This document shows positions 13,243 to 24,420 of a stretch of DNA of 64,000 nucleotides, in pieces. A program made the position numbers and the translations under genes. The stretch lies in contig CAVSGM010000002.1 in assembly GCA_963727485.1 (NCBI GenBank), forward strand, positions 1,696,001 to 1,760,000, given 5' to 3'. A model generated the notes under the pieces. The model saw only the letters and a program-made list of their open reading frames with translations, had not been told where the DNA came from and ran no database searches. The stretch is from an uncultured delta proteobacterium. GTDB taxonomy: Bacteria > Myxococcota > Myxococcia > SLRQ01. Every line of letters begins with the position of its first letter. Position 1 is the stretch's first letter.

Positions 13243-13944
13243 ATGATCGAGCACAGGCCCTTCGCCGACCTCGGCGGCGCCGACCACGGCTGGCTCAAGA
13301 CCCGCCATCACTTCTCCTTCGCCGACTACTTCGACCCCGAGCGGATGAGCTGGGGCGACCTGCGGGTGTGGAACGACGACGAGATCGCCCCGGGCACCGG
13401 CTTCCCCCTCCACCCCCACGCGAACATGGAGATCATCACCTACGTGCGCGACGGGGCCATCAGCCACCAGGACTCGGTGGGCCACCAGGGGCGCACCGCC
13501 GCCGGCGACGTGCAGGTGATGTCCGCGGGTACCGGCCTGCGCCACGCCGAGTTCAACCTCGAGGACGGGGTCACCCGGATCTTCCAGATCTGGATCCTGC
13601 CCACCGAGACCGGCGGCGAGCCCACCTGGGGCACCCGGCCCTTTCCCCGGGCCGACCGCGCCGGGCGCTTCGTGGTGCTGGCCAGCGGCCTCGGCGACGA
13701 CGGCGACGCGTTGCCCATCCGGGCCCGGGCCCGGGTCCTGGGGGCGACCCTCGGCGAAGGCGGGAGCGCCACCCTCGAGGTCGACCCGGCCCGGCACCTC
13801 TACCTGGTCCCCGCGGTGGGCGAGGTCGAGGTGAACGGGGTCCAGGTCGCCGCCCGGGACGGGGTGGCGATCACCGGTGAGGCGGCGGTCTCGGTCCGCG
13901 CCCTCGGCGACGGCGCCGAGGTGGTCCTCGTGGACGCCCCGTGA
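13243..13944 (+). CDS. Pirin-family (YhhW-like) cupin
   Basis: 'HGWLKTRHHFSFADY', 'HPHANMEIITYV', 'HQDS', 'VQVMSAGTG'. Confidence 0.93.
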   Translation: MIEHRPFADLGGADHGWLKTRHHFSFADYFDPERMSWGDLRVWNDDEIAPGTGFPLHPHANMEIITYVRDGAISHQDSVGHQGRTAAGDVQVMSAGTGLRHAEFNLEDGVTRIFQIWILPTETGGEPTWGTRPFPRADRAGRFVVLASGLGDDGDALPIRARARVLGATLGEGGSATLEVDPARHLYLVPAVGEVEVNGVQVAARDGVAITGEAAVSVRALGDGAEVVLVDAP

Positions 13945-14612
13945 CCGTGGCCGACGTCCCAGGCGCGTCCGACGCCACGCCCGGCGCCGACGCCCCGGCG
14001 CCGCGCCGCGGCCCCCGCCTCACCCTGGCCCTGGCGCTGGCCGCCGGCTGGGTGGCGATCCTCTGCCTCGGCCGGGCCGGGGGACGCATCGCCCCGGTCC
14101 TCGGGGTCTACGCCGTGGGGGTCCTCGCCCTGACCGCCGCCGCCTGGCCCGAAGCCCGGGAACGCCTGCGGGCGCGCTGGTCCGAGCTCGGCCTCGGCCT
14201 CGGCGCCGGGGTGGTCCTGGCGCTGGCCGCCTACCCGGTCTTCGGGGCCCTGGTGGAGCGCGACCCGGGCCTCGCCCCCCAGCTGGCCCGACTCTACACC
14301 CTCGCCGGCGCCCGGGGCGCCGCGGCGATCTGGCTCCTCCTCGCCGCCGTGGCCGAGGAGGTCCTGTTCCGGGGCCTGCTCTACGATCTCCTCGCGGACC
14401 TCGGCCCCACCCGGGCGGTGGGCCTCACCGCCCTCGTCTACGGCGCCGCCCAGCTGGGGACCGGTGCCTGGCTGGTCGGGGTCGCCGCCGCGGCCCTGGG
14501 GCTCGTGTGGGGGATGCTCCGGGCGAGCACCGGCCGGGTGGTGGCCCCGCTGCTGGCGCACCTGGTGTTCAGCACCGTGGTCCTGGTGATCCTCCCCCTG
14601 GTCCGGTTCTAG
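13941..14612 (+). CDS. CPBP/CAAX-family intramembrane metalloprotease
   Basis: 'AEEVLFRG' motif, 'AH' motif, multiple TMs. Confidence 0.85.
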   Translation: MTVADVPGASDATPGADAPAPRRGPRLTLALALAAGWVAILCLGRAGGRIAPVLGVYAVGVLALTAAAWPEARERLRARWSELGLGLGAGVVLALAAYPVFGALVERDPGLAPQLARLYTLAGARGAAAIWLLLAAVAEEVLFRGLLYDLLADLGPTRAVGLTALVYGAAQLGTGAWLVGVAAAALGLVWGMLRASTGRVVAPLLAHLVFSTVVLVILPLVRF

Positions 14613-14646
14613 GTCGGCGCCTATCGATCGATCGGGGGGTACCGCC

Positions 14647-15099
14647 ATGAAGGCCGGGGAGCTGTGCAACCGCGAGGTGGGGATCATCGACGGCGAGGCC
14701 ACGGTCCTCGAGGCCGCCGAGCGCATGCGTGAGCTCCACACGGGCTCGCTGGTGGTGGTGGGCGACGCCGGGCGGGTGCGCCGGCCTGTGGGCCTCATCA
14801 CCGACCGGGACCTGGTGATCTCGGTGCTGGCCACCGACCCGGCCGGCGCCGGGAGCCTCACCGTCGAGGAGGTGATGAGCACCCCGGTGCTCACCGCCCG
14901 GGAGGACCAGGACGTCAGCGAGGTGATCCCCGCCATGCGCGCCCGGGGCGTGAGGCGGGTCCCGGTGGTCGACGCCGAGGGCGGCCTCCAGGGGATCCTC
15001 GCCCTCGACGACCTGTTGGAGTGGGTCACCGAGCAGCTCACCGACCTCGCCAAGCTGGTGGAGCGGGAGCAGACCCGCGAGCGGCTCCAGGGGCGCTAG
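14647..15099 (+). CDS. CBS-pair protein
   Basis: 'EAAERMRELHTGSLVVV', 'GLITDRDLV', 'VRRVPVVD..G.LQGI'. Confidence 0.9.
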   Translation: MKAGELCNREVGIIDGEATVLEAAERMRELHTGSLVVVGDAGRVRRPVGLITDRDLVISVLATDPAGAGSLTVEEVMSTPVLTAREDQDVSEVIPAMRARGVRRVPVVDAEGGLQGILALDDLLEWVTEQLTDLAKLVEREQTRERLQGR

Positions 15100-15851
15100 G
15101 GACCCTGGGTCAGGGAGACGAGGGTGCCCAGGGAGACCCGGGTGAGGAGCAGGAGGTCCCCGGACGGCGAGCTGGTGGAGGCGCAGCTGCCGAGGTTGTT
15201 GTAGAACAGCGTCGCCGGCGCCGGGGTCACCTTGTAGACCTTCAGCGCGTTGGAGTCGGTGCAGGTCGCGCCCGAGGGCGTGGTGAACTCGTAGGCATAC
15301 CCGGGGGTCGCCGGGCTCCCGTTTGCGCACCGGAACTCGGCCAGGTCGGCGACCTGGCTGCAGCCCGCGTCGAGGTAGTAGGTGCCGCCGTTGTCGAAGC
15401 GACACAGGTGCTGGGGCTGGCAGACGGTGGTGGGCTCGAGGTACTCGCCGGGCACGCAGTAGCGCCCCGTCACCCCGGCCGAGGGATCCACCACCGTCAG
15501 GGGATGGCAGGCGGCGCCGAGCTGGGTGTCGTAGGCGGCGCCGGGCACCGGGAACGCCGAGCCGTCGCTGCCCTTGAAGGTCAGCGGCTGGAGCCGGCCC
15601 CCCGCGGTGAAGCCCCCGCCTCCGGCCGGCCCCGCCGGTCCCTGGGGGCCCGCCGGTCCCGCGGGTCCCTGGGGTCCGGTCGCCCCGGCCGGTCCCGCCG
15701 GCCCTTGGGGTCCCGCGGGACCCGGGGTGCCACCCGCGGACCCCGACGCGGTGCACGCGCCCGCGGCCAGGACAAGGGCGAGCCCCACCGCCAGGTCCAC
15801 CGCCCAGTGCCCGCGGCGCCGGCCGCCCTCCGAGATCCGTCGACTGAGCAT
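15096..15851 (-). CDS. Collagen-like repeat lipoprotein with Cys-rich C-terminal domain
   Basis: Hydrophobic signal ending LAAGAC, ~9 Gly-X-Y (GPAGPQ) triplets, Cys-rich domain. Confidence 0.7.
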   Translation of the reverse strand: MLSRRISEGGRRRGHWAVDLAVGLALVLAAGACTASGSAGGTPGPAGPQGPAGPAGATGPQGPAGPAGPQGPAGPAGGGGFTAGGRLQPLTFKGSDGSAFPVPGAAYDTQLGAACHPLTVVDPSAGVTGRYCVPGEYLEPTTVCQPQHLCRFDNGGTYYLDAGCSQVADLAEFRCANGSPATPGYAYEFTTPSGATCTDSNALKVYKVTPAPATLFYNNLGSCASTSSPSGDLLLLTRVSLGTLVSLTQGP

Positions 15852-15913
15852 TCTCGGAGCCCTACCAGAGCGCCCCCACCCTGTCGACGCGGGAGTCTCC
15901 CGTGGGATCCCCT

Positions 15914-16487
15914 TCAGGCCCGCGGTCGGGCGTGGCTGGGGTGGTGGATGGCCACGGTGCTCGCCTGGGGTCCGGCCTCGCCGGTCTCCTCCACGAAGCG
16001 CACCGGGGTCCCCACCTCCAGCCGCTCGAAGCCGCCGTCGAGGACCGCCTCCCGGTGGAAGTAGATCCACCGGCCACCTTCGGTCTCGAGGTAGCCGTGG
16101 TCCTGGCCTCGGTGGAGCTCGGCGACGACCCCCTCGGCCATGCGCACCGGCCGCTTGACCTTGTGGCGCATCACCCTCACCTGGTCCTGGAGCTGCCGCC
16201 GCGCCTCGGCGAAGGCCGCCTGGGCCGCGCTGCGCAGGGTCTCGTGACCCGCACACGCCGCCGGGTCCCGGTTCACCACCAGCTCGGCGCCAGGGACCGT
16301 GAGAATCGATGAGCACCCGGTAGTGGCGGCCGCTGCGGTGGTGGCAGTGGGGGATGTCGGCGACCACCCGCACCGCGGTGATCCGGTCGTAGAACCGCTC
16401 CAGCTTGCGGGCGGCGGCGTCGACCGCCCGCCGGTCGGCGGCGGAGGGCTCGAAGCCCCGGTAGGTGACGTCCAGCGGGATCTGCAC
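15914..16487 (-). CDS. Ribosome hibernation factor (HPF/RaiA) fused to a cold-shock domain; frameshift near 16305
   Basis: 'VQIPLDVTYRGF..KLERFYDRITAVRVV..PH.HH.SG.HYRV.I' then 'LTVPGAELVVNR..AF..ARRQL', CSD 'GYLETEGGRWIYFH..VL..GF..LEVG..V.F'; GGAGG RBS. Confidence 0.88.
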
Positions 16488-16512
16488 CGTGTCCCTCCGG
16501 CCGATGACGAAC

Positions 16513-17280
16513 GCCTGGCGGCCGAGCGGCGCGGCACCGGGTGCAGCGTTTCCCTTTCGCAGGATCAGGCGCGAGTCCGAGCTTCGTCCCGATTGGTCGG
16601 AAGCAATGCCTCTCACGAGGTTGGTTCGACTTCGGAGCGTTGTGTGCCCACCGGCCCGGGGCGTATCGGGTTGGCCGCGGCGACCTGGCTCGCTCTCCTT
16701 TCGGGGAACGGGTTCAGCGTCTTTCCGGTGGACCGTCCGCGGTCTCCATCCGAGACCGCTTCATTCTCCCGTGTCGTAGCTCCTCCCCAGAGTGCCTGGG
16801 AGCTCGTGCCCGCCTGAAGCCTCACGGCTCCGGGCTCCACCTGCCAGGGTTTCTTCCCTCTTCGCGACCTCTCCAGAGGCGTCCACTGCCGGTGGGGATT
16901 CCCGGTCCCCACGTCTCGTTCCGCCCTCAGGCTTTCCCAACCTCTCGACGGTTTGCTCCGCGCTCCGGTTTGCGGGCCTGTTTCATCCCGCTGCCACGTG
17001 AAGGGTTTTCCCGTTCAGGGGTTTCTCCCGATTCACAGCCGTCTCCGACTCTTCGCCGGTGCGAACCTCCGTGCCGTTGGGGGACCATGGCTCGTGACCA
17101 GCACGTCCACCAACAGCTCCCTCGGCTTCGAGGTCTTGCGCCGTGAACCGATGCGTTCCTTCGGCTCGGGGTTCTCCTCCCCGTTGGTCGCTCCCCTCTT
17201 CGGGTTTGATCGCCGCCTTCGTGCAAGACGAAGGGTGGGCGCTGCTGCCTCCCGGCGTCGCTGACCGCTGACCGCCAGGC
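16513..17280 (-). ncRNA. Putative large (~770 nt) highly structured non-coding RNA, family not recognised
   Basis: No credible ORF; 5' and 3' ends complementary; more than 12 helices, several with G-U pairs on the minus strand; GNRA/purine-rich loops; promoter predicts +1 at about 17280. Confidence 0.8.
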
Positions 17281-17286
17281 ACCTTT

Positions 17287-17315
17287 GAACTAGTCACCGC
17301 CTCTCCGGGGAACAA
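17287..17315 (-). promoter_or_regulatory. sigma70-like promoter for the large RNA
   Basis: -35 TTGTTC (17315-17310), 17-nt spacer, -10 TAGTTC (17292-17287); +1 falls at the first base of the terminal stem. Confidence 0.55.
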
Positions 17316-17339
17316 GGGCGGAGGATGCCCCGGCGCGGC

Positions 17340-17371
17340 TTCTCCACAGCTGTGGAGGAAGCTGTGGACTC
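17340..17371. promoter_or_regulatory. Cluster of three DnaA-box-like motifs
   Basis: TTCTCCACA (17340-48), then TGTGGAGGA (17351-59) and TGTGGACTC (17363-71) in the opposite orientation; compare consensus TTWTNCACA. Confidence 0.5.
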
Positions 17372-17433
17372 GTCGTCTCCCCCTGGCCCCGCGGCCGGCG
17401 CCGCTTAGCCTTGGGATCGAGGAGGTCACGCAC

Positions 17434-18003
17434 ATGGCCGCCACGCCCAGGACTCGCATCCTTCTGCTCTCGGGCAACCCCAAGTCGGGCCGAACCACCG
17501 CCCTGCGCACCCTCGCCGCCGAGCTCGCCGGGCTCGGTCCCCGGGGCATGCTCACCGAGGCCCTCGAGACCGACCACGGGGATCGCCTCGGTTACCGCCT
17601 GCGCACCTTCGACGGACGGGAAGCCGTGGTCGCCCACCGGAGCTTCGACTTCGACACCACCCTCGGCCCCTACGGGGTCGACGTGGATGCCCTCGACGAC
17701 TTCGCCGACGCCGCCCTCGACCCGTCGCAGGTGGCCCCGGTGTGGCTGGTCGACGAGATCGGCAAGCTCACCAGCCTCTCCGACCGGTTCGTGGAGCGGA
17801 TGGCCGCGCTCCTCGACGGCCAGGCCCCGGTGATCGCCACCGTCGCCGCCCGGGGCTCGGGCTTCGTGGGCCAGGTGCGCCGTCGCCACGACGCCGAGCT
17901 CTGGGAGGTGACCGCCGAGAACCGCGGCGCCCTGGTCGCCCGCATCGGCGACTGGCTCGCGCCCCACCTCGGGACCCCCCAAGGCGAGGCCGCTCGGATC
18001 TGA
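17434..18003 (+). CDS. THEP1/NTPase_1-family nucleoside triphosphatase
   Basis: Walker A variant 'LLSGNPKSGRTT', 'YGVDVD', Walker B 'LVDEIGKL', 'VIATVA', 'EVT.ENR'. Confidence 0.8.
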   Translation: MAATPRTRILLLSGNPKSGRTTALRTLAAELAGLGPRGMLTEALETDHGDRLGYRLRTFDGREAVVAHRSFDFDTTLGPYGVDVDALDDFADAALDPSQVAPVWLVDEIGKLTSLSDRFVERMAALLDGQAPVIATVAARGSGFVGQVRRRHDAELWEVTAENRGALVARIGDWLAPHLGTPQGEAARI

Positions 18004-18004
18004 G

Positions 18005-19096
18005 ATGCGCCATCGGCAAATGGTCCCGGGGGACGGGGTCCCAGCCGCCGATCGCCACGCCCGCGCCCGCGCGGCGATGGTGGCCCTCCTCCGCGCCCGG
18101 GGCGTGGGCGACCCGGCGGTGCTCGCGGCGATGAGCGCCGTGCCCCGGCACCGCTTCGTGGACCCGGCGCAATCCGACGCCGCCTACGCCGACACCCCCC
18201 TGCCCATCGGCCACGGCCAGACCATCAGCCAGCCGGAGATGGTGGCGGTGATGCTCGAGGCCCTCGGCCTCACCGGCGACGAGCACGTCCTCGAGGTGGG
18301 CACCGGGTCGGGCTACCAGGCGGCGCTCCTGGGGCAGCTGGCGCGGGACGTGGTCACCGTGGAGATCGTCCCCGAGCTCGCCGCGCGCGCCCGGGAGGCC
18401 CTCGCCGCCACCGGCGCCGACAACGTCAGAGTCCACCTCGGCGACGGGAGCCTCGGCTGGCCCGCTGGCGCCCCCTACGACGCCATCGTGGTCGCCGCCG
18501 CCGCCCCCCGGGTGCCGGCGCCCCTGGTGGACCAGCTCGCCGACGGCGGCCGCCTGGTCCTCCCGGTGGCCCAGTCCCTCACCCGGGTCACCCGCCACGG
18601 CGACGCCGTCGACGAGGTCCGCCTCGGGGGGTGCGCCTTCGTGCCCCTGGTCGGCGCGCAGGGGTGGATCGCCGGCGGCGACGGGCCCACCTGGAGCCAC
18701 TTCGAGCACGGCGCCGACGTCGGCATCCGCGGCCGGGGCGCCACCGTCGCCGAGGCCTTCGAGGCGGCGGCCCTGGCCCTGACCGCGGTCCTGGTCCCCC
18801 CGGCGGAGGTGGTCCCCCGGGAGGAGGTGGCCTTCGCCTGCGAGGCCCCGGACCAGGACACCCTCCTCTACGACTTCCTCTCCCAGGTGGTCTACGAGAT
18901 GGCGACCCGGGGGATGGTCTTCGGTCGCTACCAGGTCGAGGTCGAGGGCCCTCGCCTCACCGCGCGGGCCTTCGGGGAGCCGGTGGACCGCCTGCGGCAC
19001 CGGCCCACCGTCGAGGTCAAGGGCCCCACCTACACCGAGCTGAGGGTCACCGAGGACGACGCCGGGGTCACCGCCCAGTGCGTCGTCGACGTCTGA
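18005..19096 (+). CDS. pcm: Protein-L-isoaspartate O-methyltransferase fused to archease
   Basis: PIMT 'VPRHRFV..AY.D.PLPIG.GQTISQP', 'VLEVGTGSGYQAA', 'FVPLVG'; archease 'HFEHGADVGI...EVKGPTY..L......AQCVVDV*' in one frame. Confidence 0.88.
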   Translation: MRHRQMVPGDGVPAADRHARARAAMVALLRARGVGDPAVLAAMSAVPRHRFVDPAQSDAAYADTPLPIGHGQTISQPEMVAVMLEALGLTGDEHVLEVGTGSGYQAALLGQLARDVVTVEIVPELAARAREALAATGADNVRVHLGDGSLGWPAGAPYDAIVVAAAAPRVPAPLVDQLADGGRLVLPVAQSLTRVTRHGDAVDEVRLGGCAFVPLVGAQGWIAGGDGPTWSHFEHGADVGIRGRGATVAEAFEAAALALTAVLVPPAEVVPREEVAFACEAPDQDTLLYDFLSQVVYEMATRGMVFGRYQVEVEGPRLTARAFGEPVDRLRHRPTVEVKGPTYTELRVTEDDAGVTAQCVVDV

Positions 19097-19112
19097 CCCG
19101 GGAGCGGGGACC

Positions 19113-20544
<1,432 letters not shown>

Positions 20545-20549
20545 GGGCC

Positions 20550-22358
20550 ATGGCGAAGCGACGCAGACGGATCACCAACGCCGAGGTGGGCGCGGCCCTC
20601 CGGGAGCTCTCGCAGTACCTGGAGATGGACGAGGTCGCCTTCAAGCCCCGGGCCTTCGAGAAGGCCGCCTACGCGGTGGAGGCCGAGGGCCAGCCGGTGC
20701 AGGCGCGCTACGCCGACGGGGGCGCCAAGGCGCTCGAGGCGATCCCCTCGGTGGGCGAGGGGATCGCCGAGCGCATCGCCGAGCTGCTCACCCGGGGCGA
20801 GATCGCCGACCTCGAGGCCTACCGGAAGAGGTGGCCGGTGGACCTCGCGGCGCTCACCCGGGTGGAGGGGGTCGGCCCCAAGACCGTGCGCACCCTGCAC
20901 GAGGCCCTGGGCATCCGGACCCTCGACGACCTCGCCCGGGCGGTGGCGGCCGAGGAGGTCCGCGGCGTGCCGGGCTTCGGGGCGAAGAGCGAGCAGAAGA
21001 TCCAGGACGGCCTCGAGCTCGCCCGGGCCGCCGCCGGGCGCACCCCGCTGGGCCAGGTGCTCGAGCAGGCGGGGGCCATCGAGCAGCGCCTGGCCCAGGT
21101 GAAGGGCGTCGCCCGGGCCGAGGTCGCCGGGTCCATCCGCCGGCGCCGGGAGACGGTGGGCGACATGGACATCCTGGTGTGCGCCGCCGATCCCGGGCCG
21201 GTGACCGAGGCCTTCGCCACCATGCCCGAGGTGGTCCACGTCCACGGCCGGGGCGAGACCAAGACCTCGGTGCGCTTGGGCCGGGGCCTCGACTGCGATC
21301 TGCGGGTGGTGCCGGCCGAGAGCTTCGGGGCGGCGCTCCAGTACTTCACCGGGAGCAAGGCCCACAACGTCGCCCTGCGCAAGCGGGCGCAGAAGCGCGG
21401 GTGGAAGCTCTCGGAGTACGGCCTCTTCGAGGGGAGCACGCGCCTCGCCGGGCGCACCGAGGCCGAGATCTACCAGAAGCTCGGCCTGGCCTGGGTGCCC
21501 CCGGAGCTCCGGGAGGACCGCGGGGAGCTCGAGGCCGCCGAGCACGACGCCCTGCCCCGGCTCATCGAGCCCGGCGACCTCGAGGGCGACCTCCAGGTCC
21601 ACACCACCTGGACCGACGGATCGGCCTCGGTGGAGAAGATGGCCCAGGCCGCCCGGGACCTGGGGCGGACCTACCTGGTGATCACCGACCACACCCGGGA
21701 CCTGACCATGGTCGGGGGCCTCGACGAGGCGGGGCTCCGCCGGCAGATCGCCGAGATCCGCAAGGTGGACGCGCGCCTCGACGGCATCCGGGTGCTCGCC
21801 GGCGCCGAGGTGAACATCCGCGAGGACGGAAGCCTCGACGTCGACGACGAGGTCCTCGCCGAGCTCGACGTGGTGGGCGCCGCGATCCACAGCCACTTCC
21901 GCCAGGGGCGCGCCGAGATGACCCGGCGGATCGTGAAGGCCCTGGAGAACCCGCACGTCGACCTCCTCCTCCACCCCACCGCCCGGGACCTGCGGCACCG
22001 GCGGCCGGTGGACCTCGACCTCGAGGCGGTGATCGAGGCGGCCCTGAAGACGGGCACCATCCTCGAGATCGACGCCCAGCCCGATCGCCTCGACCTCCCC
22101 GACGAGGCGGTGCGCCAGGCCGTGGCCGCCGGGTGCCTGGTGGCCATCGACTCCGACGCCCACGCCCCCGAGGAGCTGCGCTACCCGGAGGTCTTCGGGA
22201 TCCCGGTGGCGAGGCGGGGGTGGGCGACGCCGGACGACGTGGTGAACACCCTCGCCCTCGAGGACCTCCTCGCGGCCCTGAAGGGCGGGGGGAGGCGGCG
22301 GCGGGCGAGGAACAAGCGCGGGAAGCGCCAGGGCGGTCGCGTCGAGGCGCACCGCTGA
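20550..22358 (+). CDS. polX: DNA polymerase X with C-terminal PHP nuclease domain
   Basis: HhH motifs, 'AGSIRRRRETVGDMDIL', 'YFTGSKAHN', PHP 'GDLQVHT..TDG', 'ITDH', 'SDAH'. Confidence 0.93.
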   Translation: MAKRRRRITNAEVGAALRELSQYLEMDEVAFKPRAFEKAAYAVEAEGQPVQARYADGGAKALEAIPSVGEGIAERIAELLTRGEIADLEAYRKRWPVDLAALTRVEGVGPKTVRTLHEALGIRTLDDLARAVAAEEVRGVPGFGAKSEQKIQDGLELARAAAGRTPLGQVLEQAGAIEQRLAQVKGVARAEVAGSIRRRRETVGDMDILVCAADPGPVTEAFATMPEVVHVHGRGETKTSVRLGRGLDCDLRVVPAESFGAALQYFTGSKAHNVALRKRAQKRGWKLSEYGLFEGSTRLAGRTEAEIYQKLGLAWVPPELREDRGELEAAEHDALPRLIEPGDLEGDLQVHTTWTDGSASVEKMAQAARDLGRTYLVITDHTRDLTMVGGLDEAGLRRQIAEIRKVDARLDGIRVLAGAEVNIREDGSLDVDDEVLAELDVVGAAIHSHFRQGRAEMTRRIVKALENPHVDLLLHPTARDLRHRRPVDLDLEAVIEAALKTGTILEIDAQPDRLDLPDEAVRQAVAAGCLVAIDSDAHAPEELRYPEVFGIPVARRGWATPDDVVNTLALEDLLAALKGGGRRRRARNKRGKRQGGRVEAHR

Positions 22359-23211: not shown

Positions 23212-24420
23212 CTAGAGCACCAGCAGCGGGGCGTCGAGGATCCCGGCCCAGAGGCTCGGGAGATCGGCCAGGAGCGATCGGGCCACGTCCTCGGCGGCGG
23301 CGACCACCCGGTGGGGGTCGGCGCCCTCGGCCTCGCGCACCCGGAGGTGGAGGAGCTGGGGGGTGTCCACGGGCTGGCCGATGCGGCTGACCAGCACGCA
23401 GCTCGCCTCGGCGATCCCCGGGACCCGCTCCACCAGCTGGTGGGCCATCCGCCCGGCGGCGACGTTGTAGATCTTGCCCACGTGGCTCACCGGGTTCTTC
23501 CCGGCCACCGACTCCAGGGTCATGGGCCGGTAGGGGGTGATGAGGCCCCCGGCGCGGTTGCCCCGCCCCGCCTCGCCGTCGTCGCCGGCCTCCGCCGAGG
23601 TGCCGGTGACGGTGAGGAAGACCGACCCGGTCGACAGGTCGTCGGCGGCGTTCACCGTCGCCGCCACCTTCCCCTCGAGGACCCCGCCGGCGAGGGTGTC
23701 GACCCAGGCCACCAGGTCGTCCCGGCGCCGCCGGTAGTCGGCGAGGTCGGCGAGCCACCGGTCCACGAACGCGACGGCGACGGTGAGCTCGACGGCGTCG
23801 CCCTGGCGCACGGCCATCAGCTTGGTGTCCTCGCCGAGCTCCGGGTGGGCGGCCCGGGTCTCGGGGGCGGTGAGGGTCTCGCCGATGCGGCGCACCGCCC
23901 GCTCCAGGGGCGAGTGGGGGAAGAAGCCGACGCCGATGGAGGTGTCGCCCGCGAGCAGGCGCCCGGTGTCCGCGGCCCGGAGGAAGAGGTCGACGAGGTC
24001 GGCGGAGCCGGGCCGCAGCCGCACCTCCACCCGGACCTGCGCCTCGGGGTCGAGGGCGTGGAGGTGCTCGGAGAGCCAGGCCCGGGTGGCGGCCTCGGCG
24101 AGCTCGGCGACGGGGATGGGCTCGCCCTTGGCCTCGAAGGTGGCGCGGCCGGCGAGGACCACGGTCATGGGCTCGAGGATCTCGCCGCCCCCAAACGCCG
24201 GGCGGCTCCGCCCGCCGACCAGCAGCACCTTGTCCACGTTGTGGTGCAGCACGGTGCCGAAGCGGGCGAGGTAGTGGCGCGAGAGGGCCCGGCTCACCGC
24301 CTCGGCGATGCCGTCGCAGAGTGTGTCCGGGTGCCCGAGGCCCTTGCGCTCGACCACCTCCACCGGGCCGTCGCCGGGCGGCGGCGCCGGATCGCGTCCG
24401 ACGACCAGGGATGTGTCCAT
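23212..24420 (-). CDS. mat: Archaeal-type S-adenosylmethionine synthetase
   Basis: 'EVVERKGLGHPDTLCD', 'HHNVDK', 'GEDTKLM', 'TGTSAEAGDDG..GRGNR', 'AGKNPVSHVGKIYN'. Confidence 0.92.
   Translation of the reverse strand: MDTSLVVGRDPAPPPGDGPVEVVERKGLGHPDTLCDGIAEAVSRALSRHYLARFGTVLHHNVDKVLLVGGRSRPAFGGGEILEPMTVVLAGRATFEAKGEPIPVAELAEAATRAWLSEHLHALDPEAQVRVEVRLRPGSADLVDLFLRAADTGRLLAGDTSIGVGFFPHSPLERAVRRIGETLTAPETRAAHPELGEDTKLMAVRQGDAVELTVAVAFVDRWLADLADYRRRRDDLVAWVDTLAGGVLEGKVAATVNAADDLSTGSVFLTVTGTSAEAGDDGEAGRGNRAGGLITPYRPMTLESVAGKNPVSHVGKIYNVAAGRMAHQLVERVPGIAEASCVLVSRIGQPVDTPQLLHLRVREAEGADPHRVVAAAEDVARSLLADLPSLWAGILDAPLLVL

Follow-up and report, generated by a model that had tools for sequence, protein, structure and literature searches.

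A large structured RNA family of Myxococcota and Planctomycetota built from a repeated internal-loop module

Positions 17280-16513 of the window (the whole 64,000-nucleotide stretch of DNA analysed here) hold, on the minus strand, a stand-alone non-coding RNA gene of ~768 nt, and it is close to certain that this is a real structured RNA. It represents a wide family in shortened form, is built from a repeated module and contains a pairing of two distant loops, which goes beyond the first-pass annotation, where a giant structured RNA with base-paired ends had been proposed. This family of large ornate RNA is uncatalogued and distinctively repeat-built. The RNA very probably acts in trans, and our best guess, held with slightly less than even confidence and drawn by analogy, is a self-folding, possibly oligomeric scaffold RNA that would be ROOL- or GOLLD-like but neither of the two.

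Identity, strand and expression of the RNA gene

The gene lies within a ~1,080-nt segment (16441-17520) that lacks codon-position GC bias. This had been called the only long gene-free stretch; it is indeed the longest without such bias, but it is one of 11 in the window, the other ten measuring 420-540 nt. Long stop-free frames are present in the RNA gene, as GC content predicts, and no ORF is conserved, the frame being kept in 25 of 2,266 indels between close homologues. The gene is single-copy in the 93%-complete source genome. In the comparison with shuffled controls that had been proposed, the sequence proves more stable than all 20 whichever strand is folded (z = -3.3 for the minus and -3.7 for the plus strand), and because the two values are similar, folding energy alone cannot fix the strand. 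The minus strand is supported by promoters at the 5' end and U-rich hairpins at the 3' end of homologues, by the bias of a simplified motif of the repeated module (4.9 per kb in the sense of the RNAs vs 0.1 in antisense and 0.78 in the genome), and by an excess of G-U pairs. The claim that mismatches are repeatedly G-U on this strand agrees with the consensus pairs (G-U 1,482 vs A-C 318), an argument that is partly circular because the structure was predicted on the minus strand.

Searches against known families support novelty. Across the whole window, no Rfam 15 family passed its gathering threshold; over 16300-17500, a search to E 10 gave chance matches only (best HgcC, E 0.038, 26 bits vs a cut-off of 50), and 28 homologous loci (8 + 20; cut-offs of E 1 or 5) had no meaningful match, so the novelty of the locus stands at Rfam sensitivity. 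The earlier suggestion of an unannotated class or a remote member of a known one is thereby divided: the RNA is uncatalogued, and the link to a known class is unsupported at that sensitivity. RNase P and tmRNA signatures are, as had been noted, absent from the locus; the genome's own copies of both lie on other contigs, and ARAGORN found zero tRNA or tmRNA genes in the window. BLAST against phage and plasmid collections returned short chance matches only, of 28-49 nt. No description of the family was found in the literature covered, outside which fall most subscription journals and bioRxiv supplements.

Expression, which had been named as a check, is apparent in public data, since RNA libraries contain the stretch at high depth and make up 16 of the 20 sequencing runs that contain it. 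Four RNA runs, selected because they contain the stretch, were mapped over 13500-20500, with depths taken from their assembled contigs only, which give neither strand nor true ends. Three of them have contigs with 0-2 differences from the window, at depths of 1,098-1,135 (16551-17271), 833-847 (16557-17271) and, in the third run, 94-157 over 16574-16984 and 17053-17268; the fourth contains a close relative of the window RNA. Flanking bins are mostly under depth 2, and depth is about zero beyond 16551. The RNA contigs of three studies end at 17271, which could point faintly, if at all, to processing of that end. The segment 16917-16960 draws 21-36 further contigs per run with summed depths in the tens of thousands; these loose-ended contigs look like other family members, and the family appears to be very abundant in RNA from salt marsh, sediment and rhizosphere. 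Each of the four RNA runs departs from the window sequence at position 16759, toward the family consensus, possibly reflecting an assembly error or a minor allele in the window.

Modular architecture and covariation

In the overall fold, a terminal helix encloses about nine copies of a single module, nested one inside another as a chain (Table 1). Each module combines an A-rich linker with two helices, the first a pyrimidine/purine helix of 3-5 bp, and between the helices lies a 3x3 internal loop, rich in purines, in which a G-G opposition adjoins the closing pair. Members of 950-1,010 nt have nine tabulated modules. The window copy retains seven of them, together with a degenerate eighth, and ~190 nt of the 5' domain are missing from it. 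Around a fixed core, peripheral modules can be gained or lost, and family lengths extend from 527 nt (Enhygromyxa salina) to ~1.3-1.7 kb in genomes and ~2 kb in contigs. Two core hairpins carry U-G-N-R-A loops, each in 68 of 87 sequences, which we take to be T-loop-type loops on the strength of the T-loop consensus. The GNRA loops remarked on earlier are also enriched, with 3-8 per RNA vs 0-3 in shuffles (16 RNAs).

Table 1. Features of the RNA gene and its surroundings (window positions)
Feature	Position	Strand	Partner, context or evidence
ncRNA gene	16513..17280	-	homologues and covariation; RNA-library contigs across 16551-17271
Terminal helix, possible extension	2-3 bp outward, to 17282/16511	-	may extend
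Closing helix P1, 3' strand	16513..16522	-	pairs with 17280-17271; pair probability 1.0
Module B	17204-17193 with 17021-17010, within 17010..17204	-	consensus fold, module table
Helix inside module B	17150-17140/17039-17029	-	consensus fold
Module C, inside module B	17134-17123 with 17076-17065	-	consensus fold, module table
Conserved core	16848..17027	-	covariance model R1, 136.5 bits
Module D, core	17005-16994/16867-16856	-	covariation
T-loop-type hairpin, core	16991-16972	-	covariation
Junction helix, core	16969-16960/16880-16872	-	covariation
Module E hairpin, core	16951-16921	-	covariation
Core hairpin with pairing loop	16914-16892	-	covariation
Hairpin loop CGGG	16901..16904	-	pairs with 16670-16667; pseudoknot or kissing loop, intra- or intermolecular
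Partner loop CCCG	16667..16670, in hairpin 16678-16657	-	loop-loop covariation
3' domain	16552..16849	-	consensus fold, module table
Module F, 3' domain	16849-16838/16563-16552	-	
Module G, 3' domain	16792-16782/16620-16610	-	
Module H, 3' domain	16775-16766/16637-16628	-	
3'-domain hairpin	16759-16739	-	
3'-domain helix	16733-16725/16654-16646	-	
Putative sigma-70-family promoter	17287..17315; -35 17315-17310, 17-nt spacer, -10 17292-17287	-	weak match
Three TCCACA-type boxes, putative DnaA-box-like	17342..17369		upstream of promoter
HPF-like and cold-shock-domain gene	15914..16487	-	downstream, co-oriented; neighbour, not part of RNA
Divergent NTPase gene	17434..18003	+	heads PCMT-archease, RtcB, PolX cluster; not conserved beside homologues

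The stretch and the helices that had been proposed agree with the sequence at their positions. In the single-sequence ensemble, pair probabilities of 0.97-1.0 are obtained for the terminal helix and for the helices 16991-72, 16951-21, 16943-29, 16759-39 and 16733-16646. The helix 17150-140/17039-029 reaches only 0.12 in the same ensemble; however, homologues support it with double changes in 8 of 12 consensus pairs and pair 17144-17035 at E 0.42, so the first-pass annotation was right here and the minimum-free-energy structure wrong.

Homologues show the compensatory changes that would accompany a selected structure. Across 87 diverse sequences, the core has standard pairs in 90.1% of cells, where shuffles reach 65.9% and slid controls 37-48%, and both-sided changes occur in 39 of 42 pairs. 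Because kin inflate double-change counts, covariation was scored by an average-product-corrected G-test, for which two tree-based nulls of 40 replicates each supplied the expectation. The top eight core pairs, all nested and Watson-Crick, lie above every null value in both nulls (E below 0.025). Non-canonical covariation was observed as A-G/G-A at 16986/16977 (E 0.08, stricter null) and as G-G/A-A at 16999/16862 (E 0.45). The full-length alignment comprises 43 sequences with a mean identity of ~65%, among which a few lineages dominate. It contains double changes in 36 of 39 consensus helices. E is at most 1 for 11 pairs, of which 10 are mainly Watson-Crick; the best reaches 0.08, and because none falls below 0.05, the helices outside the core stand on weaker statistics. 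Pairs 17201-17013, 17144-17035 and 17130-17069 are below E 1 in this alignment, and among consensus pairs, double changes affect 25 of 29 in the extended P1 and 35 of 41 in the 3' domain (25 sequences).

A long-range contact joins the loop of a core hairpin with that of a 3'-domain hairpin. Among the 63 of 87 sequences that could be scored (24 were unscorable), the variable position of the loop pair is complementary in 42, as G-C in 18, C-G in 16, A-U in 4 and U-A in 4, whereas shuffles give 18.8 +/- 3.5 and the tree-aware null 18.2 +/- 5.6, with 0 of 3,000 replicates reaching 42. The pair does not fit in 17 of the 63 homologues, and some of these loops were probably mis-picked because partner loops were chosen by pattern. 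In the 43-sequence close set alone, with 26 distinct loop pairs, the excess is not significant (p 0.13). Blind scans of alignment columns for loop-loop helices of 3 or 4 bp found none, 16904-16901/16670-16667 included, and register jitter is the likely cause of this miss. The contact may be purely intramolecular.

Distribution, transcription signals and neighbourhood

BLAST over 400 genomes of the phylum gave a match in 17, of which 15 were long, the long ones falling in 11/17 of family f6 and 4/20 of family f14; a profile search stretched these homologies across most of the RNA. A pattern of the core found 73 loci in the genome collection, 63 of them backed by profile or covariance model. The other ten (L037, L040, L042, L068, L069, L076, L079, L080, L089 and L099), without profile and model support, were dropped, as were L002-L015, L032 and L033, for which BLAST of 40 relatives gave short matches only. 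In metagenomes, a similar pattern recovered at least 121 stretches at no fewer than 120 loci, and 115 of 120 among the matches listed fit the profile. The core covariance model was positive in 10 of 150 other Myxococcota genomes, in 0 of 4 genomes of the source's own family and in 18 of 151 genomes of Planctomycetota, with the Phycisphaerae carrier at the centre of that search counted.

Carriers include Myxococcales, Kofleriaceae, Polyangia, 'Deltaproteobacteria', Phycisphaerae, other Planctomycetota and the cultured Enhygromyxa salina, and a few labelled 'Rickettsiales' or 'Enterobacteriaceae' look like mislabelled records. Members also occur on contigs of 940 and 1,154 bases in two gammaproteobacterial isolate assemblies (L055 and L090), where contamination is likely because the L090 core is identical to that of a planctomycete copy. 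Viral contigs gave no match to the core pattern; a looser pattern gave 24, of which 23 were dropped and one was real. This sole true match (L287:837-1013) sits on a 5.1-kb, putatively viral record, two tested ORFs of which have no NCBIfam family match.

In the tree, the window RNA clusters with members from another class (100/100), and a grouping with family f6, of its own class, is rejected (p-AU 3e-5; 15 of 35 rows were omitted from this topology test). Because the window RNA groups outside its own class, transfer or loss of ancient paralogues is suggested, and the sequences suggest that the gene may move between lineages. Some carriers hold up to 2-3 copies per genome. At L088 (G404:C416:2384-4169), the whole RNA gene is in tandem duplicate, ~1.6 kb apart, with a sigma-54 motif at the downstream copy and a terminator-like hairpin ending both. 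Back-junctions, in which the 3' end is rejoined to the 5' part, occur in 2 of 79 metagenome contigs (L159:1-1799 and L112:1-1391) and could be circular RNA, a template switch or an assembly chimera; none is listed for the window copy. In L159, two near-identical yet distinct copies stand head to tail, and the terminal helix is missing.

A sigma-54 motif lies just upstream of the 5' end in 37 of the 43 close homologues, many of which have a U-run hairpin at the 3' end. The window copy shares a sigma-70-like layout with its four closest homologues, from which transcription would start near 17280; a consensus promoter scan found no site at the locus, and no intrinsic terminator was found there on the minus strand. 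Farther upstream are the TCCACA-type boxes, which we liken to DnaA boxes on the basis of their consensus. CACA-type boxes number 145 vs 17 in a control stretch across the 43 homologues, spaced mostly by 11 or 21-22 bp, and the 5.55-Mb genome has two TCCACA-type clusters, the one at 17342-17369 included. The second, at G000:C2:1552535, lies between divergent genes.

Other subfamilies carry a boxA-like leader, found in sense at 45 of 104 loci, in antisense at 4 and in 0 of the 43 close homologues. The source genome's own rRNA leader has a similar motif, and the sequence suggests that boxA could serve Nus-factor antitermination in those subfamilies. BoxA was recorded near the 5' end of L041, L044, L067, L075, L088, L093, L095-L098 and many metagenome contigs. 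In the metagenome collection, 23 of 28 contigs with boxA start within 100 nt of it and many end just past the last module; because of these start and stop points they resemble whole transcripts, of 1.0-2.0 kb, and they probably originate from RNA libraries.

Across 51 loci, the neighbouring genes are unrelated and stand in either orientation, and no phage genes were found among 115 neighbouring proteins. In the gene at 15914-16487, a cold-shock domain (CSD) was found, along with a weak HPF match after read-through (E 0.008); it is frameshifted near 16305, probably through an assembly error. None of 22 other homologous HPF-CSD genes has the RNA alongside. On the other side, a PCMT-archease fusion (18005-19096) and the NTPase gene precede one open frame for RtcB and PolX-PHP (19113-22358), with an apparent frameshift late in RtcB. 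Farther along, positions 23212-24420 (minus strand) encode an S-adenosylmethionine synthetase of Pfam PF01941, presumably the archaeal type, in this myxobacterial genome.

Related RNAs and possible modes of action

GOLLD is ~800 nt long. ROOL has ~581 nt, and PMC12286853 describes cages of both RNAs held by kissing loops and A-minor contacts, with ROOL matching 16S rRNA in abundance although one strain can do without it. The present RNA resembles them in being large, multi-junction, stand-alone, patchy and abundant, with covarying loop-loop pairing and A-rich contacts (PMC12286853 and PMC5737381). The loop-loop pairing is analogous, not homologous, to their kissing loop or pseudoknot, and their covariance models do not match the window RNA or its homologous loci. 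Unlike ROOL and GOLLD, which often lie in tRNA islands and in phages or prophages (PMC5737381), the present RNA is not in such a setting, the window being free of tRNA and the 115 neighbouring proteins of phage genes. It also differs in its GC-rich Myxococcota and Planctomycetota hosts, its single repeated module, its range of ~0.5-2 kb and its mostly sigma-54 promoters.

OLE is likewise a large, abundant chromosomal RNA with long helices and non-canonical A/G contacts, and forms an RNA-only dimer (PMC12286853). It differs from the present RNA in that its model is unmatched, no conserved neighbouring partner gene is seen here, and its hosts belong to other phyla. OLE binds OapA, OapB and OapC and has a membrane location. 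Perhaps the nearest published description is that of MISL, with ~780 nt and repeating substructures, from Verrucomicrobia and Proteobacteria. Rfam 15 gave no MISL match at E up to 10 in the window or, with cut-offs of E 1 or 5, at the 28 homologous loci, and because a Ribonanza figure legend reads 'MISL RNA from RFAM' (PMC10925082), these null scans weigh against membership. The separation from MISL, drawn from the Rfam scans, is provisional; no mention of MISL was found in PMC12990946 or in the supplement of PMC10925082. The raiA motif RNA, typically placed upstream of raiA/HPF genes, also gave no Rfam match, and an HPF-like neighbour was seen at the window locus only.

RNA-only assembly or scaffolding as the main mode falls a little short of an even chance. 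The gene would supply a stable, very abundant, trans-acting architectural RNA from a stand-alone locus. The minor grooves of its repeated helices may receive the A-rich linkers and the GNRA or T-loops, and the loop-loop pair could fasten the core to the 3' domain of the same chain or of another. By analogy with ROOL, GOLLD and OLE, the RNA would fold without a dedicated protein into a compact, probably homo-oligomeric particle that might scaffold proteins or RNAs or keep them in store. The conditions of its synthesis would be set by sigma-54 activators in most members and, for the window copy, by the sigma-70-type promoter together with the DnaA-box-like array.

Other modes of action would use the same features differently. 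Were each purine-rich 3x3 loop to bind one copy of an RNA-binding protein, the RNA would be a multi-site sponge or ribonucleoprotein scaffold whose module number sets its capacity, which we consider rather unlikely. The roughly nine like modules, length variation through module addition, regulated promoters and high abundance agree with this reading, and CsrB/RsmY sponges also repeat purine-rich motifs in one RNA. Here, however, the repeated motifs form internal 3x3 loops, where the sponges have GGA in hairpin loops; the modules do not stand free as hairpins but lie one within another, held by tertiary-type motifs; and no protein neighbour is conserved. CsrA was found in 4 of 11 RNA-bearing genomes sampled and has no match in the source genome, itself 93% complete, while Ro/TROVE, of the Y RNA system, was found in 0 of 11 carriers (8 of 151 genomes overall). 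A leader acting in cis on the downstream HPF-CSD gene is very improbable: the co-oriented gene begins 26 nt downstream and the minus strand has no intrinsic terminator here, but downstream genes differ among homologues and are often convergent, the other HPF-CSD loci are devoid of the RNA, and depth vanishes past 16551.

The patchy distribution, the grouping of the window copy with another class, the presence of up to three copies per genome with one tandem pair, and the two back-junctions would suit a selfish or mobile RNA kept by spreading, whether derived from an ORF-less intron, carried along by a reverse transcriptase or replicating as a circle. Group II introns, which include ORF-less and circularly permuted kinds, share with this RNA its size, a multi-domain fold and GNRA and A-rich contacts. 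This origin is nevertheless improbable, given that the gene is intergenic, has its own promoter and often a terminator, interrupts no gene and has no Rfam match to such introns. No reverse transcriptase or integrase adjoins any of the 51 loci (one has an IS66 transposase), RVT_1 is unmatched in 17 of 27 carrier genomes, the source included, and patterns for a domain-5-like motif and a GUGYG 5' end occur in 0 and 1 of 43 homologues, respectively. Chimeric contig ends are, moreover, common in these assemblies. There is likewise little likelihood of a tRNA- or ribosome-binding RNA or ribozyme in which two adjacent T-loop-type hairpins grip the tRNA elbow, as T-loop platforms do in RNase P and T-box RNAs, and the junction serves for catalysis or binding. 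In its favour are the neighbouring UGNRA loops, the conservation of the junction strands, the rRNA-leader-like boxA of other subfamilies and the position of the window copy between an HPF-like gene and an RtcB/archease cluster. Against it, RNase P similarity is absent (motifs of conserved regions I and V in 0 of 43, no model match), as is any other in Rfam; the junction's invariance comes partly from the search pattern, members found by the model only varying there; the HPF and RtcB neighbours are not shared by homologues; and boxA is missing from the window's subfamily. Links to RtcB, HPF, CsrA, Ro and reverse transcriptase were considered and found unsupported by the neighbour survey and co-occurrence counts.

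A bolder form of the self-folding scaffold, which we regard as doubtful, is a new kind of RNA machine, a size-scalable, protein-free particle that arose by internal duplication of one tertiary module, spans ~0.5-2 kb and is among the most abundant non-ribosomal RNAs of sediment. Some branches would be under an rRNA-type antitermination leader and DnaA-like control, and the RNA might circularise after removal of the terminal helix. If true, such a particle would show how repetition of a self-docking unit gives rise to very large RNAs. Bacterial non-coding RNAs above 500 nt are a handful, three of them lately shown to form RNA-only dimers and cages. The present family, which occurs in at least two phyla and has no Rfam match, offers natural length variants around its fixed core and one specific tertiary contact. 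The cultured E. salina SWB005 offers a direct experimental handle: its minimal 527-nt member (L106:2101-2627, minus strand) is without the entire 5' domain and has its own sigma-54 motif and closing helix.
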